From: a virus
Taxonomy: Duplodnaviria > Heunggongvirae > Uroviricota > Caudoviricetes
Virus record (IMG/VR): IMGVR_UViG_2579778929_000006
Reading direction: 5' to 3' (one strand)
DNA: 14,869 nucleotides
This document shows positions 1 through 13,945 of this stretch, in pieces (the first letter of the stretch is position 1; every line of letters begins with the position of its first letter). A program made the translations under genes and the position numbers. The notes below the pieces were generated by a model, which was not told where the DNA came from, ran no database searches, and saw nothing but the letters and a program-made list of their open reading frames with translations.

Positions 1-1132
1 CCCCGGGGGGATGTCATTACGTGAAGTCACTGCATGGGCTCAGCTCCATGACGTTGCAACATTATCTGACGTGGCTCTCCTGAAGCGGCTGCGGAATGCC
101 ACCGACTGGTTTGGCATACTTGCCGCACAAACACTTGCTGTACGCGCCGCAGTTACGGGTTGTACAAGCGGAAAGAGATTGCGTCTTGTCGATGGAACAG
201 CAATCAGTGCGCCCGGGGGCGGCAGCGCTGAATGGCGACTACATATGGGATATGATCCTCATACCTGTCAGTTCACTGATTTTGAGCTAACCGACAGCAG
301 AGACGCTGAACGGCTGGACCGATTTGCGCAAACGGCAGACGAGATACGCATTGCTGACCGGGGATTCGGTTCGCGTCCCGAATGTATCCGCTCACTTGCT
401 TTTGGAGAAGCTGATTATATCGTCCGGGTTCACTGGCGAGGATTGCGCTGGTTAACTGCAGAAGGAATGCGCTTTGACATGATGGGTTTTCTGCGCGGGC
501 TGGATTGCGGTAAGAACGGTGAAACCACTGTAATGATAGGCAATTCAGGTAATAAAAAAGCCGGAGCTCCCTTTCCGGCACGTCTCATTGCCGTATCACT
601 TCCTCCCGAAAAAGCATTAATCAGTAAAACCCGACTGCTCAGCGAGAATCGTCGAAAAGGACGAGTAGTTCAGGCGGAAACGCTGGAAGCAGCGGGCCAT
701 GTGCTATTGCTAACATCATTACCGGAAGATGAATATTCAGCAGAGCAAGTGGCTGATTGTTACCGTCTGCGATGGCAAATTGAACTGGCTTTTAAGCGGC
801 TCAAAAGTTTGCTGCACCTGGATGCTTTGCGTGCAAAGGAACCTGAACTCGCGAAAGCGTGGATATTTGCTAATCTACTCGCCGCATTTTTAATTGACGA
901 CATAATCCAGCCATCGCTGGATTTCCCCCCCAGAAGTGCCGGATCCGAAAAGAAGAACTAACTCGTTGTGGAGAATAACAAAAATGGTCATCTGGAGCTT
1001 ACAGGTGGCCATTCGTGGGACAGTATCCCTGACAGCCTACAAAACGCAATTGAAGAACGCGAGGCATCGTCTTAACGAGGCACCGAGGCGTCGCATTCTT
1101 CAGATGGTTCAACCCTTAAGTTAGCGCTTATG
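1..1132 (+). mobile_element. IS186 (IS4 family), partial: left ~200 bp lie outside the window; right end at ~1132
   Basis: Transposase ORF runs in frame from the first bases of the window. Positions 1110-1132 (caacccttaagttagcgcttatg) are the reverse complement of the IS186 terminal inverted repeat as I recall it (CATAAGCGCTAACTTAAGGGTTG). The phage reading frame resumes immediately after 1132. Confidence 0.8.
2..961 (+). CDS. insL: IS186 transposase (IS4-family DDE transposase), N-terminally truncated by the window edge
   Basis: 316-aa ORF (11..961) continues upstream in frame (ccc ggg ggg atg = PGGM). Translation MSLREVTAWAQLHDVATLSDVALLKRLRN...YRLRWQIELAFKRLKSLLHLD matches my memory of the IS186 InsL protein. 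Confidence 0.8.
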   Translation, partial: PGGMSLREVTAWAQLHDVATLSDVALLKRLRNATDWFGILAAQTLAVRAAVTGCTSGKRLRLVDGTAISAPGGGSAEWRLHMGYDPHTCQFTDFELTDSRDAERLDRFAQTADEIRIADRGFGSRPECIRSLAFGEADYIVRVHWRGLRWLTAEGMRFDMMGFLRGLDCGKNGETTVMIGNSGNKKAGAPFPARLIAVSLPPEKALISKTRLLSENRRKGRVVQAETLEAAGHVLLLTSLPEDEYSAEQVADCYRLRWQIELAFKRLKSLLHLDALRAKEPELAKAWIFANLLAAFLIDDIIQPSLDFPPRSAGSEKKN

Positions 1133-1601
1133 GGCTGACGGGGACTATGTCGTCTGGGCTAAAGAAGTGCCCGGCATTACCCGCGCATGGACATACCGTC
1201 ACTGGATGGGAACGGGAACTGTCGGTGTGATGATTGCCAGCAGTGACCTGATTAATCCCATTCCGGAAGAATCAACGGAAACGGCAGCAAGACAACATAT
1301 CGGGCCACTGGCCCCGGTGGCAGGCTCTGATTTGTATGTATTCAGGCCGGTGGCACATACGGTGGATTTTCATATCCGCGTGACGCCGGACACACCAGAA
1401 ATACGGGCTGCCATTACCGCGGAGTTGCGTTCGTTCCTGCTGCGTGATGGTTATCCGCAGGGAGAACTGAAGGTATCGCGTATCAGTGAGGCGATTTCCG
1501 GTGCGAACGGGGAATACAGCCATCAGTTGCTTGCACCGGTGGACAATATCTCCATTGCGAAAAACGAACTGGCGGTACTGGGGACGATTTCATGGACGTG
1601 A
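1133..1601 (+). pseudogene. Phage baseplate assembly protein (P2 gpJ / Mu gp47 / e14 YmfP type), C-terminal fragment; 5' part displaced by the IS186 insertion
   Basis: The reading frame of ORF 1167..1601 is open back to the IS186 end at 1132 (…WADGDYVVWAKEVPGITRAW…). Its stop overlaps the start of the next tail gene (1592), as is typical of baseplate operons. Family assignment is by gene order and recollection. Confidence 0.55.
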
Positions 1602-2176
1602 CAAACGATGATTACATCCGCCTGTTATCGGCACTGTTGCCGCCCGGTCCGGCGTGGTCAGCCAGCGATCCGGCGATTGCCGGTGCGGCACCGTCATTAA
1701 CCCGTGTTCATCAGCGTGCGGATGCCCTGATGCGGGAGCTGGATCCGCGCACCACCACTGAACTGATAAACCGCTGGGAGCGTCTGTGCGGTCTGCCGGA
1801 TGAATGTATTCCCGCAGGGACACAGACCCTTCGTCAGCGTCAGCAACGGCTGGATGCGAAGGTTAACCTGGCGGGCAGCATCAACGAGAATTTTTATCTT
1901 GCACAGCTTGCTGCCCTGGGCAGACCAGATGCCAACATCACGCGATACGACAAAAGCACGTTCACCTGCTCATCGGTCTGTACTGACGCGGTGAATGCGC
2001 CGGAATGGCGGTATTACTGGCAGGTCAACATGCCAGCCGCCACAAACACCACCTGGATGACATGTGGCGATCCCTGTGATTCCGCGCTGCGTATCTGGGG
2101 CGACACCGTTGTCGAATGTGTGCTTAACAAACTCTGCCCGTCGCATACCTACGTAATTTTTAAATATCCGGAGTAA
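1592..2176 (+). CDS. Phage tail/baseplate protein (P2 gpI / Mu gp48 / e14 YmfQ type)
   Basis: 194-aa ORF, translationally coupled to the upstream J-type gene and followed 3 bp later by the tail-fibre gene. Position in the J-I-H-G order supports the call; the size matches the e14 YmfQ class from memory. Confidence 0.6.
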
Positions 2177-2179
2177 TCC

Positions 2180-3109
2180 ATGCATCGTATAGACACGAAA
2201 ACCGCGCAGAAGGATAAGTTCGGCGCGGGTAAGAACGGTTTTACCCGTGGTAACCCCCAGACCGGCACACCTGCCACCGATCTGGATGATGACTACTTTG
2301 ACATGTTGCAGGAGGAACTTTGCAGTGTTGTGGAGGCATCCGGTGCCAGCCTGGAGAAGGGGCGGCATGACCAGCTGCTTACAGCGCTTCGTGCGCTGCT
2401 GTTAAGCCGCAAGAATCCGTTTGGCGATATCAAATCGGATGGTACTGTGCAAACGGCTCTCGAAAACCTTGGTTTAGTAAATAACGGCGCAGTCGGTCGT
2501 CTGATTGGCATGCAGATAATCAAGACGTCTGGCACTTACACCAAAACTCCCGGAGCAATGTTCGCGGATGTCATCGCTATTGGGGGCGGTGGGGGCGGCG
2601 GATGGGCAACTTCCACAGCAAACTATAACGCCGCGGGTGGTGGTGGCGGTGGCGGTGGAATGGCACGTGGTCTCTTTAACCTGTCTGCAATATCAACCGT
2701 GCTTGTCACGATTGGTGCGGGTGGTAATGGCGGTATTGCCTCGACGATGACCAATGGCACGCAGGGTGGTACGACGACTTTTGGCTCTTATCTCTCAGCA
2801 AGTGGAGGCCAGCCAGGCAGCGGCTGCACTGCGTCAGGCTCCTCTGCGTCATGTGGCATGGGCGGTCAGGGTGGCACTTCGACCGTGGGTGCCATTTTGT
2901 GCAACGGGTACGCCGGGCTACCCGGTGTGATGGCAACCCCAACAGCAGTCGGAGGGAGTGTAGGTCACGGTCTTGGCGGCGGTAGCTTTATTTCTGGCCC
3001 TGGTGGGTATGGTGCGGGTGGTAATAGCGCGGCAACCGGTGGTGGGATGCAGAATGTCAACGGCAACCCGGGCAATGCTGGCGTGATTATTATTCTGGAG
3101 TACGCGTAA
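2180..3109 (+). CDS. Tail fibre protein with conserved N-terminal baseplate-attachment region and glycine-rich, low-complexity C-terminal region
   Basis: 309-aa ORF. N-terminus [51 protein letters not shown] resembles tail-fibre N-termini. C-terminal two thirds are Gly/Ser/Thr-rich with two poly-Gly runs (GGGGGGG, GGGGGGGG). The stop overlaps the start of the assembly gene. Confidence 0.6.
2457..2484. other. Candidate crossover site for a Din-family DNA invertase (hix/gix/cix/pix-like) inside the tail-fibre gene
   Basis: ctctcGAAAACCttGGTTTagtaaataa carries the palindromic core AAACC-nn-GGTTT. By my recollection it matches hixL (TTCTTGAAAACCAAGGTTTTTGATAA) at about 17 of 26 positions. It sits at the expected constant/variable junction of the fibre gene. 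Confidence 0.4.
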
Positions 3110-3516
3110 TGAATAGCAGATATGCAGTGATTGAAAATGGCACCGTGACCAACATTATCGTGTGGGATGGTGAAACAGTATTCTCCGCAGGAGATAATCA
3201 ACTGTTTATGCCCATTCAGGATAATGCAGGTATTGGCTGGTCATGGTCAGATGATGGCGGTGTATTTATTCCTCCGCCTGCCCCAAAAAAAACACCAGAA
3301 CAACTGGTTGCAGAAGCCAAAGCGGAAAAACAGACCAGACTTGATTTTGCGACCACAAAAATTGTCGTCTGGCAGACAAAGTTGCTGATGGGTCGCAAGC
3401 TCACGGACGAAGAAAGCACACAGCTAAATGCCTGGATGGACTACATCGACGCGGTGACGACAATCGACCCCTCCACCGCGCCGGATGTCATCTGGCCTGA
3501 ACTGCCGGAGGAGTAG
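3109..3516 (+). CDS. Tail fibre assembly protein (Tfa; Mu U / P2 gpG / e14 TfaP type)
   Basis: 135-aa ORF with start overlapping the tail-fibre stop (taATGa). C-terminal …LNAWMDYIDAVTTIDPSTAPDVIWPELPEE is the conserved Tfa C-terminal signature. Confidence 0.65.
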   Translation: MNSRYAVIENGTVTNIIVWDGETVFSAGDNQLFMPIQDNAGIGWSWSDDGGVFIPPPAPKKTPEQLVAEAKAEKQTRLDFATTKIVVWQTKLLMGRKLTDEESTQLNAWMDYIDAVTTIDPSTAPDVIWPELPEE

Positions 3517-3675
3517 GCCATTCAATATCTGGCGCACTGGAGGTATCAACCAGCTCCAGTGCATCCAGATAATCCAGCCACAGATTAAACTGCACTTTTC
3601 ATCATCAGACAATCGTCCAGGCGCGAGCCTGGATGCTGGCATCTCTGCCCAATTTAAATTTGAGAGGTAATTATG

Positions 3676-4227
3676 TTAACAGTTAATCCACCAGTATGTG
3701 CCGGGTGCCTGCGGGTAAGTGGCGGCGGCAACCTCGTGAACCATCCCCCAATCCAGAGCTGTGGAGGCATTGGCTATGGTGGCGGCGGAGATAACCTCCT
3801 TCCACTCATTGCGGCTCTTACTGAGCTCAATCTGACTCTCCAAAATATCGACAAAACGCTCCAGGTCATTATTGAGACACGCGCTCCACTCACTGACGCG
3901 TGAGTGATCCACGCTTGGGCCCATCAAGCCCCAGTGAAAAGGATGCAGTAAGAACCGACTCCCAGGATTCGCCTTACGTTCAGACCCTGCAAGAAAAATG
4001 ATATTAGCGACTGATTCAACATTGCTAAGGTTATGGGTCTTTACTGGGATTGGTAGGGCCTTTAGAAAGTGATAAGCAGTAAAACCTGCAACGAGGTCAC
4101 CGCCCGGACTGGAAATGTAAATGTTTAACTCAGTCGCCCCCTGATTGATAGCTCCAAGGCAATTGCTAATTAAAGCGTTAACGGTGGACTGATTTACGGG
4201 CACCGTGAAATTCATAGTATGCAGCAT
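3676..4227 (-). CDS. ClpP-fold (peptidase S14/S49-like) serine protease homologue, orphan
   Basis: Minus-strand ORF with AGGAGA 5 nt upstream of ATG at 4227-4225 (the track ORF starts one codon earlier at a GTG). NIYISSPGG aligns to the ClpP YINSPGG motif. A Ser lies 28 residues after SPGG in NVESVA, the same spacing as ClpP Ser97, and a His follows 22 residues later in RFLLHP (ClpP His122, spacing 24). The third catalytic residue was not confirmed. Confidence 0.5.
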   Translation of the reverse strand: MLHTMNFTVPVNQSTVNALISNCLGAINQGATELNIYISSPGGDLVAGFTAYHFLKALPIPVKTHNLSNVESVANIIFLAGSERKANPGSRFLLHPFHWGLMGPSVDHSRVSEWSACLNNDLERFVDILESQIELSKSRNEWKEVISAATIANASTALDWGMVHEVAAATYPQAPGTYWWINC

Positions 4228-4294
4228 CACTATCTCCTTGTTTAGTTAGTGGACACATTACCCTGGGAGCAATAAAAAACATAACGCATACTGC

Positions 4295-4740
4295 ATGCTT
4301 AGTTGGTGACCGGCGATCTAAGTTTAGCAAGGATGCATATCTGAAGGCGATACGCTGGTGGTCTGAAAGCGTGACCGCCTCGGTCGCAGCATGCGACATC
4401 TTGTTGGGTTAGTGGAGGAACTGCGGGAGAAAGGTGTTAACTTCCGGAGCCTGACGGATAGCATCGATACGAGTACGCCTATGGGGCGCTTCTTCTTTCA
4501 TGTGATGGGTGCCCTGGCTGAAATGGAGCGAGAGTTTATTGTCGAACGTACTAGGGCGGCTTTGCCGCAGCACGACAAGAAGGGAGGAACGGTGGGCGAA
4601 AGCCAAAGCTGACAGTAGAACAATGGGGGCAGGCTGGCAGGTTGATTGAATCGGGAATATATCAGCAGCAAGTCGCACTGATTTATGATCTGGATATTTC
4701 AACGGTGTATAAAAAATTCCCTGTAGCAAGTAAACCATAG
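4295..4740 (+). pseudogene. DNA invertase (serine recombinase, Pin/Gin/Hin/Cin family), disrupted
   Basis: Translation across frames gives EGDTLVV*KRDRLGRSMRHLVGLVEELREKGVNFRSLTDSIDTSTPMGRFFFHVMGALAEMEREFIVERT…, then after a frameshift RKPKLTVEQWGQAGRLIESGIYQQQVALIYDLDISTVYKKFPVASKP*. This matches invertase sequence from the middle of the catalytic domain through the C-terminal HTH. Defects: in-frame TGA at 4364-4366 where Trp is expected, a frameshift near 4590-4600, and most of the N-terminal catalytic region missing (ATGCTT at 4295 followed by an apparent deletion). Confidence 0.7.
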
Positions 4741-4766
4741 CCTTACGCCACATTGATGATCGCGGA

Positions 4767-5462
4767 TTATGCACTATTTTTAGGTCTTGTAACCCGAGGT
4801 GGGAGTTGTTTGGTTATATGTTCAAGTGATTTTTTGCCCAAGATAGTTCTTTGGACAAAACTTTCTATAGCTTCTAGCATTTGTTCGAACTCACTTTTAT
4901 TCGGGCTCCAACTGCGATGTGCGGCGGCGTTTCCTGCATCAATTACTGAAGATATAACGCATGCCTCAGTGTCGCCTATGACTCCATCTTGTTTTAATTT
5001 TTCAACTTTTTCACCAAGCGGCAAACCGGGGTGAATTTGTAACAGTTCAGCAGTTCGATCAAAAATCGTCCGTAAACCGATGGACGAAAGAATGAAATGG
5101 TCAGAAGTATATGAAGAATACATTTCATTAAATATTTGAAAGAGCTGACGATCAACTGATTCAAGCTTGGATAACCATATCGGAGCTTGAAATGTTTCAG
5201 CGGCAGGATAGGTAGTGATCATATCTATAGGCGTTTCTACAAATTCACCATCACGATATTCGTGGGTAGTATGCTCACTGAAGTGTTCGTTGTGGTGATA
5301 GAAGACAGTATCACAGCCATTGCATTGGAGTAGGTGATGGTAATGGTACCCATAAACTGGATATTGGGAATCCTCCCAGCTAGTGGTTAGCTTCCCATGC
5401 ACAGTGCAGTTACGTAACCCACCGCATGTAGGGCAAAGAGCCTTGAGTATTTCCTTTTTCAT
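4767..5462 (-). CDS. Hypothetical protein: N-terminal zinc ribbon plus C-terminal HEPN-like (DUF4145-type) domain; candidate defence/abortive-infection factor
   Basis: 231-aa ORF. Cys pairs C10-x2-C13 and C47-x2-C50 (CPTCGG…CNGCD) flank a His/Tyr-rich stretch. The C-terminal helical region carries GNAAAH, which I recall as the signature of Pfam DUF4145. GC content is visibly lower than in flanking genes. The RBS is weak. Confidence 0.5.
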   Translation of the reverse strand: MKKEILKALCPTCGGLRNCTVHGKLTTSWEDSQYPVYGYHYHHLLQCNGCDTVFYHHNEHFSEHTTHEYRDGEFVETPIDMITTYPAAETFQAPIWLSKLESVDRQLFQIFNEMYSSYTSDHFILSSIGLRTIFDRTAELLQIHPGLPLGEKVEKLKQDGVIGDTEACVISSVIDAGNAAAHRSWSPNKSEFEQMLEAIESFVQRTILGKKSLEHITKQLPPRVTRPKNSA

Positions 5463-5810
5463 AAAGTCTCTGATTCTATATGTAGGTTAAGACCACTATT
5501 AGCTATACGGACCTAATAATCAATCGTGTGCAGATACAAAAAAGCCCGTATAGCGGGATTTCATGTCACTAAGGGCCGCGGCTACTTTGCGTATCTTTTT
5601 TGTCTTCTCACCGTCTGGCCGGTATTTTGCTGAGACTGCTTATTTCCAGTTTTTACTAGTGCTGTACTGGTACTGCCCAATCATGATTGGTGGGGGACGG
5701 AGTTGAGACTGCAGCCACGTCGTATGCAAGAACGCGCTGCGGTTGGCTGGTGAACTTTCGATAGTGCGAGTATTGAATGATTTCCAGCCGTTACAGATTT
5801 TACGTGTTTA

Positions 5811-6059
5811 TTAGTGAACAAACCACTCGTCAGCAGATTCCCAGGTATCTTTCAGAGTCTCCTGAACAAAAGTTTTTGCAGAATCCTTATCTGCGGTGCG
5901 TGTAACAGAAAGGCCATCATTGCTGGTGGCTTTTACTAACACCTCAACATCGTCATAACGCTTACTGATGCGTCGGGTTAATTCTTCCTTTAACGCATCC
6001 ACAGCACCGGTTGGCATTTTAGTCATTTTTTCTTTGGCTATGCAGATTTCAATACGCAT
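5811..6059 (-). CDS. dinI: DinI-family protein (DNA-damage-inducible protein I homologue)
   Basis: 82-aa [14 protein letters not shown]…[11 protein letters not shown] closely resembles E. coli DinI (MRIEVTIAK…ETWESADDWFV). GGAGGG RBS upstream. Confidence 0.8.
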
Positions 6060-6074
6060 AAAAGTCCCTCCATA

Positions 6075-6090
6075 CTGTGTTTGTATACAG
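6075..6090 (-). promoter_or_regulatory. LexA (SOS) box upstream of the dinI-like gene
   Basis: CTGTgtttgtatACAG is a perfect CTGT-N8-ACAG. The 20-mer 6073-6092 (TACTGTGTTTGTATACAGCA) matches the consensus TACTGTATATATATACAGTA at 16 of 20 positions. It lies 16-31 bp upstream of the dinI-like start codon. Confidence 0.55.
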
Positions 6091-6120
6091 CATTATTTTT
6101 AACTGTATGGATAAACAGTG

Positions 6121-7218
6121 TCAAGAGGTCTTATTTCTGCTCCTTTGGAGCTCTTCAAAACGATTATGTAAAGATTTCGGATACAGTTCGGTATATACCT
6201 GCCATAGCACGTTTAATGAACGATGCCCTGTAACTTGGGCGACTTCCTCAATACTAAAACCAGCCTCAAATAAGCGACTTGCCCCTTCTCTACGCAAATC
6301 ATGGTATCGCAGATCCTTAATACCTAATTTGCTTCTTACTCTCTGAAATCCCGCAGTAACAGAAGTGCTGTTATATGGAAAAATGAATTCCGATTTTTGG
6401 GGCTGTCGTTGGACGATATCCCAGGCTTCCCCAAGCAAGGCTACTTTCATGTGGTTACCTTCCTTTTTGCGTGGATCTTTCCTGTCTCTTACGAGTATAG
6501 ATTTTTGTTCCTGGTCGAGATCTTCCCATCGTAACCGGCATACTTCTCCGATTCGCATACAGGACCATACAGAAAATTTGAGGATATCAACGAACGGAAT
6601 TTTTGAGCATTTATGAGTAGATCGTTGTTGAAGGCCTGCAATGAGCATGTCCAGTTCATCAGATGCTGGTCTACGATTACGACGGTTTGATTTACCAATC
6701 AAACCAAGTTTAAGTAGATATGGGCGAGCGCTTTTCGCCGGGTTTGATGTGTAATTAATTCCGTATACAGGTTTGGCCGCATCCAGAACACTGCCAAGAT
6801 AACTAACATCGTGGCTGACTGTTGCAGGACCTGCACCAGCGTTGTTTCTTAGCCTGCAATGTTCAATTACGTCATTTTCTGTCAGTTCAGATAGTTTGAT
6901 CGCGGAGATGTCACTATCCATAAGCAGTTCCAGCACATATCTTTTAGTACGGCCTGCTTTACCTCCGGCATTTGGGTCATTTAAATATTTGTGTAGTAAG
7001 TCACGGACTGTAAGTCCGTCAACTGCATTTGATGATGGAATGCCATATAGATCTAATTCCATCACTTTCTGTGTGCCCCATGTTTTGGCATGAGCATGTT
7101 TAGGGAATGTTTTGCTTTCCCTGTAAGTGATAACACCTTTTTCTTTGATAATCACATTACAGCGATAGCGTGGTGTGCCATCGGATTTTAGTCGTTTCTC
7201 TATGTTATAGTACGCCAT
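6121..7218 (-). CDS. Tyrosine site-specific integrase, candidate dusA-associated integrase
   Basis: 365-aa ORF with C-terminal …LRYHDLRREGASRLFEAGFSIEEVAQVTGHRSLNVLWQVYTELYP, consistent with the H-x-x-R … Y catalytic signature of tyrosine recombinases. GAGG RBS. Start codon is 89 bp from the divergent dusA start. Confidence 0.85.
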   Translation of the reverse strand: MAYYNIEKRLKSDGTPRYRCNVIIKEKGVITYRESKTFPKHAHAKTWGTQKVMELDLYGIPSSNAVDGLTVRDLLHKYLNDPNAGGKAGRTKRYVLELLMDSDISAIKLSELTENDVIEHCRLRNNAGAGPATVSHDVSYLGSVLDAAKPVYGINYTSNPAKSARPYLLKLGLIGKSNRRNRRPASDELDMLIAGLQQRSTHKCSKIPFVDILKFSVWSCMRIGEVCRLRWEDLDQEQKSILVRDRKDPRKKEGNHMKVALLGEAWDIVQRQPQKSEFIFPYNSTSVTAGFQRVRSKLGIKDLRYHDLRREGASRLFEAGFSIEEVAQVTGHRSLNVLWQVYTELYPKSLHNRFEELQRSRNKTS

Positions 7219-7306
7219 TACACGACCTCGTTATTTCGGGTTCCCATAAAACGTGGGAACCTGTGCGGGAACCTAACGCGAGAAAAATAGCCTGAAATGT
7301 TCAAAA

Positions 7307-8344
7307 ATGCACGATAATCATGAAACACAAAAAATTAATCAAACCAGCGTGATGCCTGAAAAAACTGGTGTTTACTGGAATTCTCGGTTTAGCATTGCTC
7401 CTATGCTCGACTGGACGGACAGACATTGCCGCTATTTCTTGCGTCTGCTTTCCCGCAATACGTTGCTGTATACCGAAATGGTGACCACAGGGGCGATTAT
7501 TCACGGTAAAGGTGATTACCTGGCGTACAGTGAAGAAGAACATCCGGTAGCGTTGCAACTCGGCGGTAGCGATCCGGCGGCGCTGGCACAGTGTGCGAAG
7601 CTGGCAGAAGCGCGTGGATATGATGAGATCAACCTGAATGTCGGCTGCCCGTCTGACCGGGTGCAGAACGGCATGTTTGGTGCGTGTCTGATGGGTAATG
7701 CGCAGCTGGTTGCCGACTGCGTGAAAGCGATGCGCGATGTGGTGTCGATTCCGGTGACGGTGAAAACGCGTATTGGCATCGACGACCAGGACAGCTATGA
7801 ATTTCTCTGCGATTTCATCAACACCGTTTCCGGCAAAGGCGAGTGTGAGATGTTCATCATCCATGCACGTAAAGCCTGGCTTTCGGGGTTAAGTCCGAAA
7901 GAAAACCGTGAGATCCCGCCGCTCGATTATCCGCGTGTGTATCAACTGAAGCGTGACTTTCCGCATCTGACAATGTCGATTAACGGTGGTATCAAGTCGC
8001 TGGAAGAGGCCAAAGCACACCTGCAACATATGGATGGCGTGATGGTCGGGCGCGAGGCGTATCAGAATCCGGGTATTCTGGCGGCGGTAGACCGGGAGAT
8101 CTTTGGTTCCTCGGATATCGATGCCGATCCGGTGGCGGTAGTGCGCGCCATGTATCCGTACATTGAGCGTGAACTCAGCCAGGGGACGTATCTCGGTCAT
8201 ATTACCCGGCATATGTTGGGCTTGTTCCAGGGTATTCCTGGCGCGCGGCAGTGGCGGCGTTATTTAAGTGAAAATGCCCATAAAGCGGGTGCAGACATTA
8301 ATGTGCTGGAACACGCGCTCAAACTGGTGGCGGATAAGCGTTAA
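7307..8344 (+). CDS. dusA: tRNA-dihydrouridine synthase A
   Basis: 345-aa ORF. …[37 protein letters not shown]…[14 protein letters not shown]… matches E. coli DusA. The true start is uncertain (in-frame ATGs at 7307, 7322 and 7352), and the first codons may be island-derived. Confidence 0.9.
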
Positions 8345-8373
8345 CTTTTCACCAAAAAATAGTCAAATTCACC

Positions 8374-8407
8374 ACGCCCTGCGCACCGTCGCGGGGCGTT
8401 TTGCTGT
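8374..8407 (+). terminator. Probable rho-independent terminator after dusA
   Basis: GC-rich hairpin acgccctgcg-cacc-gtcgcggggcgt followed by tttgctgtt, about 30 bp after the dusA stop. Confidence 0.5.
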
Positions 8408-8425
8408 TAAATCAATAGATTATTT

Positions 8426-8442
8426 TTGGCATGATTCTTGTA
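8426..8442 (+). promoter_or_regulatory. Candidate sigma54 (-24/-12) promoter for pspG
   Basis: TGGCAT-gattc-TTGTA resembles the TGGCAC-N5-TTGC consensus with a GT for GC at -12. It lies about 36 bp upstream of the pspG start. pspG is known to be sigma54/PspF-dependent. Confidence 0.45.
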
Positions 8443-8477
8443 ATGCCAGCAAGAGATTTCATATTTGGGAGTGCATC

Positions 8478-8720
8478 ATGCTGGAACTACTTTTTGTGAT
8501 TGGCTTTTTTGTCATGCTGATGGTCACCGGCGTTTCGTTGCTGGGCATTATCGCCGCGCTGGTTGTGGCGACGGCCATTATGTTCCTCGGCGGTATGCTG
8601 GCATTGATGATTAAGTTGCTGCCGTGGTTACTACTGGCGATTGCGGTGGTGTGGGTTATTAAGGCGATTAAAGCACCAAAAGTGCCGAAATATCAGCGTT
8701 ATGACCGCTGGCGTTACTAA
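8478..8720 (+). CDS. pspG: Phage shock protein G (small inner-membrane protein)
   Basis: 80-aa hydrophobic protein MLELLFVIGFFVMLMVTGVSLLGIIAALVV…, preceded by GGGAG RBS. The track ORF starting at 8268 is an upstream in-frame extension. Confidence 0.85.
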   Translation: MLELLFVIGFFVMLMVTGVSLLGIIAALVVATAIMFLGGMLALMIKLLPWLLLAIAVVWVIKAIKAPKVPKYQRYDRWRY

Positions 8721-8844
8721 GGGATTGTGCGGATGATCACAACCTAAGGTTTTATCCTTAGAACAAAATAGGAATTGATAATCAAATCTGTCACTATTGC
8801 GCCTCTAACAGATTCATCGTGCTGTACCCTACATACAGCCGAAC

Positions 8845-8882
8845 TATAAAAAGAAAGGGCTTCCCAGGTGGAAGCCCTATTT
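8845..8882. terminator. Bidirectional rho-independent terminator between convergent pspG and qorA
   Basis: Hairpin agggcttcc-caggt-ggaagccct (8856-8878) flanked by A-rich sequence on the left and T-rich sequence on the right, so it has a U-run on either strand. Confidence 0.55.
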
Positions 8883-8885
8883 CTT

Positions 8886-9869
8886 TTATGGAATCAACAG
8901 GCTGGAACCTTGCGTTGCCCGGCTTTCCAGAATTTCATGCGCACGCTGCGCATCCTTCAGCGGATATTTCTGCTGCTCGGCGACATCGACCTTAATCACA
9001 CCGCTGGCAATCAAAGAGAACAGTTCATTACTGGCCTCGGTTAATTCCTCCCGCGTGGTGATATAGCCTTGCAGGGAAGGGCGTGTCACATACAACGAGC
9101 CTTTCTGATTGAGAATGCCTAAGTTCACACCGGTAACCGCACCTGATGAGTTGCCAAAACTCACCATTAAGCCGCGGCGTTGCAGGCAATCCAGCGACCG
9201 TTCCCAGGTGTCTCTGCCCACGGAATCGTACACCACGCGCACTTTCTTACCGCCGGTGATCTCTTTTAACCGCTCGACCAGATTCTCTTCACGATAGTTA
9301 ATAACCTGCCACGCGCCCGCTTTTAGCGCGCTCTGCGCTTTTTGCGCGGTTCCTACGGTGCCGATAAGTTTCGCGCCCAGGGCTTTTGCCCACTGGCAGG
9401 CAATCAAGCCAACGCCGCCAGCTGCTGCGTGGAACAGGAACTGCTCATCGGGTTTAATTTCATAGGTTTTGCGCAGCAGATAATAAACCGTTAAGCCTTT
9501 CAGGAAGGATGCCGCAGCTTGCTCAAAAGAAATTGCCGCAGGCAGAATCGCCGCTTTATCCGCAATAATGTTATGCACAGAGCTGTAAGCGCCTAACGCC
9601 GACTGCGCATAGACTACACGATCGCCTGCCTTAATATGCTTTACACCACTGCCGACTTTACTCACGATGCCTGCTGCTTCGGTGCCTAATCCGCTGGGTA
9701 GCGATGGCGGCGGGTAAAGGCCGCTGCGGATATATGTGTCGATAAAATTGATGCCGATGGCTTTATTTTCGACCTGGATTTCATTCTCCGCCGGATCGGC
9801 AGGAGTGAACTCTACGGCTTGAAGTACTTCCGGGCCACCGTGCTTGTGAAATTCAATTCGTGTTGCCAT
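8886..9869 (-). CDS. qorA: NADPH:quinone oxidoreductase (zeta-crystallin homologue)
   Basis: Translation from MATRIEFHKHGGPEVLQAVEF… to …ATQGSSLLIP is 327 aa, matching E. coli Qor. CCTCC complement (GGAGG RBS) lies just upstream of ATG at 9869. The track ORF extends 36 codons further upstream. Confidence 0.9.
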   Translation of the reverse strand: MATRIEFHKHGGPEVLQAVEFTPADPAENEIQVENKAIGINFIDTYIRSGLYPPPSLPSGLGTEAAGIVSKVGSGVKHIKAGDRVVYAQSALGAYSSVHNIIADKAAILPAAISFEQAAASFLKGLTVYYLLRKTYEIKPDEQFLFHAAAGGVGLIACQWAKALGAKLIGTVGTAQKAQSALKAGAWQVINYREENLVERLKEITGGKKVRVVYDSVGRDTWERSLDCLQRRGLMVSFGNSSGAVTGVNLGILNQKGSLYVTRPSLQGYITTREELTEASNELFSLIASGVIKVDVAEQQKYPLKDAQRAHEILESRATQGSSLLIP

Positions 9870-9951
9870 GTGTCCTCCAGAACGTATCGTCAGGGTCTGC
9901 TTCATATGGTAAAGTTTCGACCCATTCTTTATCTCGGTAACTCCATTCACT

Positions 9952-11367
9952 ATGGCAGGAAATAAACCCTTCAACAAACAGCAGGCTGAACCCCGCGAAC
10001 GCGATCCACAAGTTGCCGGGCTGAAAGTGCCTCCGCACTCGATCGAAGCGGAGCAGTCGGTGTTGGGCGGTTTAATGCTAGATAACGAACGCTGGGATGA
10101 TGTAGCCGAGCGTGTGGTAGCAGACGATTTTTACACCCGCCCACACCGTCATATCTTTACTGAAATGGCGCGTTTGCAGGAAAGCGGTAGCCCTATCGAT
10201 CTAATTACTCTTGCGGAATCGCTGGAACGCCAGGGGCAACTCGATAGCGTCGGTGGTTTTGCTTATCTGGCAGAGCTGTCAAAAAATACGCCAAGTGCGG
10301 CGAACATCAGTGCTTATGCTGACATCGTGCGTGAACGTGCCGTTGTCCGTGAGATGATCTCGGTTGCGAATGAGATTGCTGAAGCCGGTTTTGATCCGCA
10401 GGGGCGTACCAGCGAAGATCTGCTGGACCTTGCTGAATCCCGCGTCTTTAAAATTGCCGAAAGTCGTGCAAACAAAGACGAAGGGCCGAAGAACATCGCC
10501 GATGTGCTCGACGCAACCGTGGCGCGTATTGAGCAGTTGTTTCAGCAGCCACACGATGGCGTTACCGGAGTAAACACCGGTTATGACGATCTCAACAAAA
10601 AAACCGCTGGCTTGCAGCCGTCGGATTTGATCATCGTCGCCGCGCGTCCGTCGATGGGTAAAACAACATTTGCGATGAACCTCGTCGAAAACGCGGCGAT
10701 GTTGCAGGATAAACCAGTACTTATCTTCTCGCTGGAGATGCCTTCAGAACAGATTATGATGCGTTCTCTGGCGTCGCTGTCGCGCGTTGACCAGACTAAA
10801 ATCCGTACCGGGCAGCTCGATGATGAAGACTGGGCGCGCATTTCCGGCACCATGGGTATTTTGCTCGAAAAACGCAATATCTATATCGATGACTCCTCCG
10901 GCCTGACGCCAACGGAAGTGCGTTCCCGCGCACGCCGTATTGCCCGTGAACACGGCGGCATCGGGCTTATCATGATCGACTACCTGCAACTGATGCGCGT
11001 ACCGGCGCTTTCCGATAACCGTACGCTGGAAATTGCAGAAATCTCTCGCTCGCTGAAAGCACTGGCGAAAGAACTGAACGTGCCGGTGGTGGCGCTGTCC
11101 CAGTTGAACCGTTCTCTGGAACAACGTGCCGACAAACGCCCGGTCAACTCCGACCTGCGTGAATCTGGCTCTATCGAGCAGGATGCGGACTTGATCATGT
11201 TTATCTATCGTGATGAGGTGTATCACGAAAACAGTGATTTAAAAGGCATCGCGGAAATTATTATCGGTAAACAACGTAACGGCCCAATCGGGACGGTACG
11301 CCTGACCTTTAACGGTCAATGGTCGCGCTTCGACAACTATGCGGGGCCGCAGTACGACGACGAATAA
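9952..11367 (+). CDS. dnaB: Replicative DNA helicase
   Basis: 471-aa ORF MAGNKPFNKQQAEPRERDPQVAGLKVPPHSIEAEQSVLGGLMLDNERWDDV… with Walker A (AARPSMGKT) and RecA-like core, matching E. coli DnaB. Confidence 0.95.
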   Translation: MAGNKPFNKQQAEPRERDPQVAGLKVPPHSIEAEQSVLGGLMLDNERWDDVAERVVADDFYTRPHRHIFTEMARLQESGSPIDLITLAESLERQGQLDSVGGFAYLAELSKNTPSAANISAYADIVRERAVVREMISVANEIAEAGFDPQGRTSEDLLDLAESRVFKIAESRANKDEGPKNIADVLDATVARIEQLFQQPHDGVTGVNTGYDDLNKKTAGLQPSDLIIVAARPSMGKTTFAMNLVENAAMLQDKPVLIFSLEMPSEQIMMRSLASLSRVDQTKIRTGQLDDEDWARISGTMGILLEKRNIYIDDSSGLTPTEVRSRARRIAREHGGIGLIMIDYLQLMRVPALSDNRTLEIAEISRSLKALAKELNVPVVALSQLNRSLEQRADKRPVNSDLRESGSIEQDADLIMFIYRDEVYHENSDLKGIAEIIIGKQRNGPIGTVRLTFNGQWSRFDNYAGPQYDDE

Positions 11368-11419
11368 TAATTATTTTATGAATTAGGTAATTAAAACAAA
11401 CACTTATCAAGGAACACAA

Positions 11420-12499
11420 ATGCAAGCGGCAACTGTTGTGATTAACCGCCGCGCTCTGCGACACAACCTGCAACGTCTTCGTGAACTGGCCCCTGCCAGT
11501 AAAATGGTTGCGGTGGTGAAAGCGAACGCTTATGGTCACGGTCTTCTTGAGACCGCGCGAACGCTCCCCGATGCTGACGCCTTTGGCGTAGCCCGTCTCG
11601 AAGAAGCTCTGCGACTGCGTGCGGGGGGAATCACCAAACCTGTACTGTTACTCGAAGGCTTTTTTGATGCCAGAGATCTGCCGACGATTTCTGCGCAACA
11701 TTTTCATACCGCCGTGCATAACGAAGAACAGCTGGCTGCGCTGGAAGAGGCTAGCCTGGACGAGCCGGTTACCGTCTGGATGAAACTCGATACCGGTATG
11801 CACCGTCTGGGCGTAAGGCCGGAACAGGCTGAGGCGTTTTATCATCGCCTGACCCAGTGCAAAAACGTTCGTCAGCCGGTGAATATCGTCAGCCATTTTG
11901 CGCGCGCGGATGAACCAAAATGTGGCGCAACCGAGAAACAACTCGCTATCTTTAATACCTTTTGCGAAGGCAAACCTGGTCAACGTTCCATTGCCGCATC
12001 GGGTGGCATTCTGCTGTGGCCACAGTCGCATTTTGACTGGGTGCGCCCGGGCATCATTCTTTATGGCGTCTCGCCGCTGGAAGATCGCTCCACCGGTGCC
12101 GATTTTGGCTGTCAGCCAGTGATGTCACTAACCTCCAGCCTGATTGCCGTGCGTGAGCATAAAGCCGGAGAACCTGTTGGTTATGGTGGAACCTGGGTAA
12201 GCGAACGTGATACCCGTCTTGGCGTAGTCGCGATGGGCTATGGCGATGGTTATCCGCGCGCCGCGCCGTCCGGTACGCCAGTGCTGGTGAACGGTCGCGA
12301 AGTACCGATTGTCGGGCGCGTGGCGATGGATATGATCTGCGTAGACTTAGGTCCACAGGCGCAGGACAAAGCCGGGGATCCGGTCATTTTATGGGGCGAA
12401 GGTTTGCCCGTAGAACGTATCGCTGAAATGACGAAAGTAAGCGCTTACGAACTTATTACGCGCCTGACTTCAAGGGTCGCGATGAAATACGTGGATTAA
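11420..12499 (+). CDS. alr: Alanine racemase, biosynthetic
   Basis: 359-aa [44 protein letters not shown]… with the PLP-lysine motif [10 protein letters not shown], matching E. coli Alr. Confidence 0.95.
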
Positions 12500-12524
12500 T
12501 CGTTCTGTAATATTTGATTGTCTG

Positions 12525-12556
12525 TGCCGGATGCGGCGTGAATGCCTTATCCGGCC
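12525..12556. repeat. REP (repetitive extragenic palindromic) element
   Basis: tGCCGGATGcggcgtgaatgccttATCCGGCc is the classic E. coli REP palindrome, located in the alr-tyrB intergenic region. Confidence 0.7.
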
Positions 12557-12751
12557 AATAAAATCCTAAAAATTCAATAAGTTGATGTTCTTTCATGCTC
12601 TTATAAAGGTCGTGCCTCTGGCGGATGTACGTTTGTCATGAGTCTCACTCTGTTGCTAATTGCCGTTCGCTCCTGAACATCCACTCGATCTTCGCCTTCT
12701 TCCGGTTTATTGTGTTTTAACCACCTGCCCGTAAACCTGGAGAACCATCGC

Positions 12752-13945
12752 GTGTTTCAAAAAGTTGACGCCTACGCTGGCGACCCGATTCTTACGCTTA
12801 TGGAGCGTTTTAAAGAAGACCCTCGCAGCGACAAAGTGAATTTAAGTATCGGTCTGTACTACAACGAAGACGGAATTATTCCACAACTGCAAGCCGTGGC
12901 GGAGGCGGAAGCGCGCCTGAATGCGCAGCCTCATGGCGCTTCGCTTTATTTACCGATGGAAGGGCTTAACAGCTATCGCCATGCCATTGCGCCGCTGCTG
13001 TTTGGTGCGGACCATCCGGTACTGAAACAACAGCGCGTAGCAACCATTCAAACCCTTGGCGGCTCCGGGGCATTGAAAGTGGGCGCGGATTTCCTGAAAC
13101 GCTACTTCCCGGAATCAGGCGTCTGGGTCAGCGATCCTACCTGGGAAAACCACGTAGCAATATTCGCCGGGGCTGGATTCGAAGTGAGTACTTACCCCTG
13201 GTATGACGAAGCGACTAACGGCGTGCGCTTTAATGACCTGTTGGCGACGCTGAAAACATTACCTGCCCGCAGTATTGTGTTGCTGCATCCATGTTGCCAC
13301 AACCCAACGGGTGCCGATCTCACTAATGATCAGTGGGATGCGGTGATTGAAATTCTCAAAGCCCGCGAGCTTATTCCATTCCTCGATATTGCCTATCAAG
13401 GATTTGGTGCCGGTATGGAAGAGGATGCCTACGCTATTCGCGCCATTGCCAGCGCTGGATTACCCGCTCTGGTGAGCAATTCGTTCTCGAAAATTTTCTC
13501 CCTTTACGGCGAGCGCGTCGGCGGACTTTCTGTTATGTGTGAAGATGCCGAAGCCGCTGGCCGCGTACTGGGGCAATTGAAAGCAACAGTTCGCCGCAAC
13601 TACTCCAGCCCGCCGAATTTTGGTGCGCAGGTGGTGGCTGCAGTGCTGAATGACGAGGCATTGAAAGCCAGCTGGCTGGCGGAAGTAGAAGAGATGCGTA
13701 CTCGCATTCTGGCAATGCGTCAGGAATTGGTGAAGGTATTAAGCACAGAGATGCCAGAACGCAATTTCGATTATCTGCTTAATCAGCGCGGCATGTTCAG
13801 TTATACCGGTTTAAGTGCCGCTCAGGTTGACCGACTACGTGAAGAATTTGGTGTCTATCTCATCGCCAGCGGTCGCATGTGTGTCGCCGGGTTAAATACG
13901 GCAAATGTACAACGTGTGGCAAAGGCGTTTGCTGCGGTGATGTAA
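12752..13945 (+). CDS. tyrB: Aromatic-amino-acid aminotransferase
   Basis: Translation from GTG at 12752 ([37 protein letters not shown]…) gives 397 aa, matching E. coli TyrB. GGAG RBS 9 nt upstream. The track ORF starting at 12710 is an in-frame upstream extension. Confidence 0.9.

Follow-up and report, generated by a model that had tools for sequence, protein, structure and literature searches.

The minus-strand gene at positions 3676–4227 of the Caudoviricetes record IMGVR_UViG_2579778929_000006 (14,869 nucleotides in all, hereafter the window) encodes a 183-residue ClpP-like protein which, judged from its sequence, is an N-terminally truncated ClpP paralogue lacking the catalytic aspartate, of the type represented by ClpP1 of Pseudomonas plecoglossicida (PpClpP1, PDB 9UXT). 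In the Enterobacterales, the family is a single-gene moron that resides in accessory-gene hotspots of prophages and is almost always antisense to its neighbours, and we consider its combined identity as truncated paralogue and moron to be highly probable. In the best explanation of the data (probability about 0.55), temperate phages carry the gene as an autonomous moron of one gene, and its product stacks on the ClpP of the host. The initial annotation, made from the letters alone, had placed an orphan ClpP-fold protease in the slot of an alternative tail-fibre segment and had offered two readings, an accessory protease or a remnant of another phage morphogenesis module; the former fits the genomic contexts described below, the latter does not.

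The automated list of open reading frames starts the gene one codon upstream, at GTG 4230. Since every homologue begins with MLHT or MIHT and since an AAGGAG motif, the strong ribosome-binding site already recognised in the initial annotation, lies six nucleotides before ATG 4227, the 183-residue call from this ATG is correct. Comparison with two diverged copies (87.7% and approximately 77% nucleotide identity) gave ratios of non-synonymous to synonymous substitution rates (dN/dS) of 0.06–0.09. The reading frame is intact and purifying selection on it is strong, so that it is no decaying leftover. This, together with its autonomous recurrence in at least six kinds of slot in four or more phage architectures, contradicts the view of the gene as a stranded morphogenesis remnant. 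Homology to the 87.7%-identical copy in strain 100416 spans 3640–4289, so the 5′ leader travels with the gene. Clear rho-independent terminators follow the homologues at loci L003, L004, L007, L013, L019 and L020. The GC content of the insert (48.6%) is not distinctive. Two minus-strand frames upstream (4178–4399 and 4409–4774) were considered as partner genes and rejected, being antisense to the invertase pseudogene and without family matches.

Over residues 7–168 the protein scored 49.6 bits with Pfam family PF00574 (CLP_protease, peptidase S14; E = 5.4e-13), above the gathering threshold of 20.2 bits. Homologues were recovered in 58 clusters with E-values down to 1e-117, and a profile search showed the family of short ClpP proteins to be large (325 clusters at 50% identity with E <= 1e-30). 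An AlphaFold2 monomer model built from the family alignment (A3) had a pLDDT of 93.4 and, in Foldseek, a TM-score of 0.93 (rmsd 1.7 Å) to 9uxt_A and of 0.82–0.84 to the canonical ClpP proteins of E. coli, S. aureus and T. thermophilus, in line with the ClpP fold proposed earlier. The spacing of the SPGG motif (S40-P41-G42-G43), serine and histidine was likewise read correctly: in the alignment Ser97, His122 and the oxyanion Gly68 of E. coli ClpP (EcClpP) correspond to Ser72, His95 and Gly43, all invariant across 22 homologues, and the histidine opens a conserved HPFHW segment (H95 to W99). The Ser-His-Asp triad that the initial annotation had wanted checked is thus present in its first two members and missing in its third, as the catalytic Asp171 of EcClpP is replaced by Ala149, a position occupied by A, S or G and never by an acidic residue in the 22 aligned homologues. 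There is also no counterpart to the first 24 residues of mature EcClpP, that is, to the axial gating loops that contact the ATPase. The residues that line the IGF/ADEP docking pocket in the EcClpP–ADEP and ClpX structures are replaced here by polar or small ones (Y60N, F82A, I90H, F112K, L114N and L189A), and the protein accordingly lacks the hydrophobic pocket in which the IGF loops of ClpX and ClpA dock. Because the aspartate, the gate and the docking pocket are all missing, the protein is not a canonical ATP-dependent ClpP, and it scored only 28–44 bits against the NCBIfam ClpP equivalogs (TIGR00493, PRK00277 and others), whose cutoffs lie at 228–361 bits.

The phage-borne enterobacterial clade shares a conserved C-terminal xWW(V/I)xC tail (window residues 178–183), with a short strand predicted at residues 177–180, that the chromosomal Pseudomonas proteins lack. 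The tail could plug the pocket of a neighbouring subunit or contact a partner.

The label of orphan given in the initial annotation holds for the gene, which stands alone, and less so for the protein, as a homologue with 40–47% identity has been characterised by cryo-EM and biochemistry (9UXT; phmmer E = 9.8e-38 over residues 3–169). This homologue, PpClpP1, is an N-terminally truncated paralogue of 183 residues that forms a homotetradecamer with a pore of 42.7 Å; of its triad Ser73-His96-Pro151 the serine and the histidine are essential and the third residue is dispensable (PLoS Pathog 2026, PMC12900304). Its peptidase activity is about 13-fold below that of the canonical paralogue and it does not bind ClpX, yet with canonical ClpP it forms a stable hetero-tetradecamer with increased peptidase and ClpX-dependent activity, and its deletion slows growth and reduces motility (PMC12900304). 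A truncated paralogue of this kind was recently put forward as a drug target in Pseudomonas. The PpClpP1 paper nowhere mentions phages (PMC12900304).

Every context examined in the Enterobacterales, and one in Chromobacterium, was a prophage, and in each of them the gene was solitary and ran counter to the phage genes on either side. It was located between gpU/pin and tfa in P2-like Enterobacter prophages, between the tape-measure region and a DNA-circulation gene in a Mu-like tail operon of Pantoea, between the lysis cassette and terminase in lambdoid prophages of Klebsiella, Leclercia and E. coli, between N and erf/ssb in lambdoid prophages of Proteus, and between fibre and lysis genes in the Chromobacterium prophage. 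In P22-like phages and prophages (phiv205-1, APEC O1), it directly follows an Arc/Mnt-type ribbon-helix-helix gene (PF03869) with overlapping stop and start codons, and this two-gene unit is divergent from arc-ant; in lambda-like PhiR12 phages the pair was found together with ant between the tail genes L and K. In IMG/VR a relative was present on no fewer than 100 viral contigs, of which 80 were retrieved and 70 could be classified against a panel of reference neighbour proteins. The Mnt-linked context was the commonest (37 contigs, 8 of them between lambda L and K), followed by the lysis–terminase junction (19), convergence on tfa (8), Mu-like tail (3), other lysis-adjacent positions (2) and N–erf (1), with 10 contigs unclassified. 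Flanking phage genes lay on the opposite strand throughout the classified contigs, with the exception of Mnt and P2 gpU, making the antisense orientation nearly universal in this set. The slots thus amount to at least six kinds in P2-like, Mu-like, lambdoid and P22-like architectures. Among the neighbours were further accessory genes (a YafO toxin, a colicin, DUF4145 and DinI), and the gene showed presence/absence polymorphism, being missing from the TL20 counterpart of the window prophage and, in FORC_082, from beside the same Arc gene.

A head gene was the identified immediate neighbour in none of the 70 classified contigs, against a panel that held no capsid or portal query, and no capsid, portal or scaffold gene lay immediately beside the ClpP-like gene in the other prophage contexts surveyed either (approximately 100 contexts altogether). 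No AAA+ gene was found in the window or in the surveyed neighbourhoods. The initial annotation had suspected as much from the window, where it saw neither an adjacent capsid gene nor a ClpX/ClpA-type partner, and the neighbour survey that it called for returned lone, mostly antisense genes in accessory slots. The family as a widespread phage moron appears to be unreported in the literature searched.

If the phage protein behaves like PpClpP1, its subunits would form heptameric rings of the ClpP type whose wide pore would be ungated and whose Ser/His-dependent peptidase activity would be weak; such a ring could not by itself recruit an unfoldase. Its chief action would then be to stack on the canonical ClpP ring of the host, giving a hybrid tetradecamer that would dock to ClpX or ClpA through the host ring and whose degradation capacity would be altered (in Pseudomonas, increased). 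The stacking step, which is drawn by analogy, we put at slightly under an even chance. Expression in the lysogen is suggested by the translational coupling to the mnt-type gene and by the orientation antisense to late or early lytic operons, and it is the commonest, Mnt-coupled version that implies it. The payoff, seen from the genomic context, would be a change in host Clp proteolysis during lysogeny that favours the prophage, with exclusion of other phages as the preferred candidate benefit, followed by control of the turnover of Ant or repressor and by host stress fitness. A bolder formulation, which we hold to be possible though rather doubtful, is that temperate phages of the Enterobacterales spread a "parasitic" ClpP ring that docks on host ClpP and reprograms ClpXP and ClpAP, which would be a new single-gene mechanism of superinfection exclusion or lysogeny control; a gate-less, adaptor-blind Ser-His subunit expressed in the lysogen would in that case hijack a housekeeping protease of the host with no sensing or cutting of nucleic acids.

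Several observations weigh against the explanation preferred here, a moron whose product stacks on host ClpP. The oligomeric state and activity proposed, as well as the pairing with E. coli ClpP, are extrapolations from a Pseudomonas protein of 40–47% identity, which has proline as third residue where the window protein has alanine, and whose gene is chromosomal and not phage-borne, unlike the window gene and its enterobacterial relatives. The prophage in the window is itself defective, with an insertion sequence in baseplate J and a dead invertase. A promoter and terminator scan of 3400–4800 returned nothing above shuffle expectation near the gene, and as no consensus sigma-70 promoter or terminator was recognised for the window copy, the expression of this copy is putative. 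The gene is rare in E. coli across four alleles: among 5426 complete genomes, 26 had the window allele, 1 had its 87.7% variant, 7 had the lambdoid allele and at least 78 had the Mnt-linked one. Approximately 485 further distant E. coli matches were set aside, as they most probably reflect the invertase stretch 4338–4420 contained in the query; the lambdoid allele alone was found in only 7 genomes. Finally, the literature search returned nothing on phage- or prophage-borne ClpP in defence or moron contexts, and PADLOC-DB v2 gave no match at E <= 0.01 for the ClpP-like protein or its neighbours.

This last result also speaks against the alternative that the gene acts as a single-gene superinfection exclusion or anti-phage defence system, in which the barrel, alone or with host ClpP/ClpX, would destroy some protein of an infecting phage, for instance one ejected in unfolded form or a replication protein that is sensitive to ClpXP. 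We regard this alternative as unlikely, and as a biological role it could be combined with the stacking mechanism. Its support is positional. The slots occupied are those in which temperate phages keep exclusion and defence morons, namely the P2 Z/fun-type position beside tfa, the P22 immI/sieA region, the N-side sieB/ral region of lambda and the lysis–terminase junction, and the orientation antisense to late operons, the coupling to a lysogen-expressed mnt-type gene and the presence nearby of YafO toxin, colicin, DUF4145 and DinI genes point in the same direction. Virulence, fitness and regulatory morons, however, also typically reside in such hotspots, the nearest homologue that has been characterised is chromosomal with growth and motility phenotypes and is not an immunity gene, and no experimental report of exclusion was found in the literature searched. 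A role within the prophage circuit, by which the protein would tune the stability of Ant, Arc/Mnt or the main repressor for steadier lysogeny or sharper induction, seems less likely again. Known targets of ClpXP control include the phage regulators lambda O and Mu repressor, the gene lies directly after the Arc/Mnt-type gene and beside arc-ant in 37 of the 80 retrieved IMG/VR contigs and in at least 78 complete E. coli genomes, and the mnt–clpP-like pair moves together with ant between the lambda tail genes L and K. As neither ant nor mnt is found near the window allele or in the P2-like, Mu-like, lysis–terminase and N–erf contexts, this association is clade-specific and not family-wide.

On a par with the circuit role, and thus improbable, is lysogenic conversion, in which an additional ClpP ring would improve the proteostasis of a stressed or stationary-phase host, with only an indirect gain for the phage. 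The Pseudomonas orthologues (L051–L056) are chromosomal and lie beside genes for KGG-type stress proteins and DUF6555 in two separate lineages, and deletion of PpClpP1 slows growth and cuts motility while the hybrid raises ClpXP output (PMC12900304). This neighbour evidence comes from Pseudomonas only, and a gene of general benefit would be expected to spread further or to become chromosomal, whereas this one is rare and patchy in E. coli. The KGG/DUF6555 neighbourhood in Pseudomonas hints at a stress or stationary-phase regulon, which the 2026 paper does not discuss. That the gene is a displaced or degenerate prohead protease, now functionless, has a very small probability, even though its best PHROG match is phrog_94, head maturation protease (E = 2e-27), its top NCBIfam match is Clp_rel_HeadMat (NF045542), and a homologue in one phage record is labelled as head maturation protease. 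The phrog_94 match is limited to the protease core (positions 111–256 of 622) and the NCBIfam match reaches 50.1 bits against a cutoff of 120. Moreover, the homologue of solved structure forms a free tetradecamer of the ClpP type and pairs with the ClpP of the cell, and profile cutoffs, the contexts without immediately adjacent capsid, portal or scaffold genes and the low dN/dS effectively rule out a prohead-protease remnant.

What the window copy replaced was apparent from the sister prophage of strain TL20 (L002), which keeps the whole cassette: fibre gene, tfa, inverted tfa′, inverted alternative fibre segment, invertase gene and crossover inverted repeats (20 nt, 95% complementary, AAACCTTGGTTTGGGAGAAG, L002 2965–2984 and 4842–4861). 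Around the block that holds the ClpP-like gene, homology of the window to TL20 is confined to 3437–3607 and 4338–5600, and the 730 bp in between stand for 904 bp of the TL20 cassette, the lost DNA being the bulk of tfa′, the alternative fibre segment together with the right crossover site, and 154 bp at the start of the invertase gene. The gene therefore does occupy the alternative-fibre slot beside an invertase, as had been proposed, the invertase here being a remnant. A tblastn search with a Pin query covered residues 52–134 and 126–184, and the annotation of the related prophage in strain CT29 gives the gene as frameshifted, with an internal stop and a missing N-terminus. Of the alternative half of the invertible segment, a remnant of tfa′ is all that is left, and the inversion switch of the window no longer functions. 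The possibility that the gene lies in a still-invertible segment and is switched by inversion was rejected because the flanking crossover inverted repeats, present in TL20, are found neither in the window nor in the P2-like contig L073. Only the first half-site (AAACCTTGGTTT) is kept in the window, at 2462–2475; it falls within the fibre gene, at the boundary of the StfP-like N-part and the glycine-rich C-part, and may be a relic of crossover-site recombination.

In members of the window clade (at least 77% nucleotide identity), one neighbour is always tfa and the other always pin, whether intact or decayed, and this arrangement occurs in both P2-like and e14/Mu-like tail modules. L073, with a DNA divergence of about 22%, is arranged in the same way, its full-length pin and the ClpP-like gene being divergent, which indicates that capture into the alternative half of the invertible cassette is old and that the cassette has since passed between phage types. 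The transfer probably went by way of recombination in the conserved tfa and pin sequences, since P2, Mu, P1 and e14 are well known to exchange fibre modules. The invertase gene has decayed independently and to differing extents across the clade. In the P2-like prophages L008–L011 and L073, the tail block FI-FII-E-T-U runs opposite to V-W-J-I-H-G, which makes gpU and tfa converge, and the junction of the two holds the ClpP-like gene and pin (intact in L073, decayed in L008 and L074). An IMG/VR contig (L072, 3861–4534) carries a copy with 92% protein identity and 98% DNA identity over the shared stretch, in which the first ~8–23 codons are replaced by a pin remnant (Pin residues 116–181), a further deletion at the same junction.

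The remaining features of the window are those of a prophage end and the adjoining chromosome (Table 1). Positions 7307–13945 are E. coli chromosome (dusA, pspG, qor, dnaB, alr and tyrB) and the end of a defective prophage occupies the window to the left of 7307; dusA is the integration site of the prophage, as the tyrosine integrase gene abuts its 5′ end. The RefSeq-annotated locus of strain CT29 matches window 1132–10100 at 98.8% with the same gene arrangement. Its baseplate J gene is whole and its homology to the window begins only at 1132, so that the window prophage, in which the insertion sequence (IS) interrupts baseplate J, is defective and the window strain differs from CT29. After the IS and to the left of the fibre gene lies ymfQ, and the fibre gene and tfa (2180–3516, plus strand) converge on the ClpP-like gene. 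The TL20 prophage, which has the same DUF4145/DinI end, adjoins prfC and not dusA, and in BR1220 the ClpP/pin junction is found in another prophage, adjoining dacD. The DUF4145 protein (231 residues) has an N-terminal region resembling a zinc ribbon with a double CxxC and a C-terminal DUF4145 domain (PF13643), matches phrog_1305 strongly (E = 5e-43) and has no PADLOC match; its gene lies between invertase and DinI in very many E. coli prophages, a 2.7-kb query containing it matched 4130 of the 5426 genomes at least partially, and it is an accessory-gene candidate in its own right. A two-gene system with the ClpP-like gene was rejected, as nearly every other context of the latter lacks DUF4145, and thousands of genomes have DUF4145 without the ClpP-like gene.

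Table 1. Features of the window and of loci carrying the Mnt-linked form of the ClpP-like gene. Coordinates are those of the window unless a locus is named.
Feature	Coordinates	Strand	Remarks
IS4-type transposase (DDE_Tnp_1)	11–961		IS4-family element at 1–1131; breaks baseplate J gene
Tail fibre, StfP N-part fused to glycine-rich domain	2180–3109	+	Expressed orientation; PF21722 and CT29 annotation
tfa, fibre assembly protein	3109–3516	+	PF02413 and CT29 annotation
Frameshifted 3′ remnant of inverted tfa′	3488–3624 (approx.)	-	Converted from CT29 RefSeq annotation; reads ...LSDDEK..LDYLDALELVDTSSAPDIEWP in shifted frames
Block unique relative to TL20-type prophage	3608–4337	.	Holds the ClpP-like gene
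ClpP-like gene, 183 aa	3676–4227	-	Stop TAA 3678–3676, ATG 4227–4225
5′ leader of ClpP-like gene	4228–4289	-	Conserved in the 87.7%-identical copy of strain 100416 (L006)
Shine-Dalgarno AAGGAG	4239–4234	-	6 nt upstream of ATG 4227; read directly from the sequence
Pin/Gin-type serine invertase pseudogene	4337–4740	+	Pin residues 52–184 only; frameshifted; N-terminal catalytic-Ser region missing
DUF4145/zinc-ribbon protein	4767–5462	-	Prophage-end context, not part of the module
DinI-like	5811–6059	-	Prophage-end context, co-oriented with the DUF4145 gene
Tyrosine integrase	6121–7218	-	Prophage-end context; abuts dusA
dusA	7307–8344		Chromosomal
Arc/Mnt-type + ClpP-like overlapping unit	L003 5753–6537; L066 5054–5838 (APEC O1); 37 IMG/VR loci in L096–L143		

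The PpClpP1-type family is thus also mobile phage cargo, repeatedly inserted in slots for exclusion, defence and regulatory genes. The family as such was already known, while its suggestive genomic lifestyle as a phage moron appears to be new. Should the phage version pair with host ClpP, phages would alter a central bacterial protease from within, with consequences for prophage stability, phage–phage competition or host stress tolerance, an idea that a single gene with a catalytic-dead control makes directly testable. The assignment also corrects the routine mis-annotation of such genes as "ATP-dependent Clp protease proteolytic subunit" or "head maturation protease".

In comparison with known systems, the phage prohead proteases (NF045542, PHROG 94) share with the ClpP-like protein a phage-borne gene, a ClpP-type core and comparable profile scores, but the protein falls below the family cutoff and has no scaffold or capsid-targeting extension, and its gene is in no head operon among the contexts surveyed and is antisense to late genes. 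With the morons and exclusion genes of temperate phages, it shares the organisation as a single autonomous gene between conserved phage genes, often antisense and in several homologues followed by a terminator, and the presence/absence polymorphism among otherwise alike prophages. Such genes occupy like slots in P2 (Z/fun beside tfa), P22 (sieA near mnt) and lambda (sieB/ral near N), and include inserts of the bor/lom type; to our knowledge, none of these encodes a ClpP fold. Canonical ClpP has the same alpha/beta fold, Ser-His pair and oxyanion glycine, and the PF00574 threshold is passed, whereas identity is only about 19%, Asp171 and the axial loops are absent here, the pocket is polar, and the gene is unlinked to clpX and mobile on phages. 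The likeness to PpClpP1 is much closer and extends to the length of 183 residues, the truncated N-terminus, the Ser/His pair (S72/H95 here, S73/H96 there), the HPFHW segment, a non-acidic third residue and the absence of ATPase-docking features, with the C-terminal WW(V/I)xC tail of the enterobacterial clade as a difference. Weak or inactive ClpP paralogues that are activated by stacking on a partner ring are known from Listeria ClpP1/2 and Mycobacterium tuberculosis ClpP1P2, and 4RYF and 4U0G were among the PDB sequence and structure matches. By analogy with these two-ClpP systems (Listeria, Mycobacterium and P. aeruginosa), the phage-borne protein would correspond to the weak paralogue, which it resembles.

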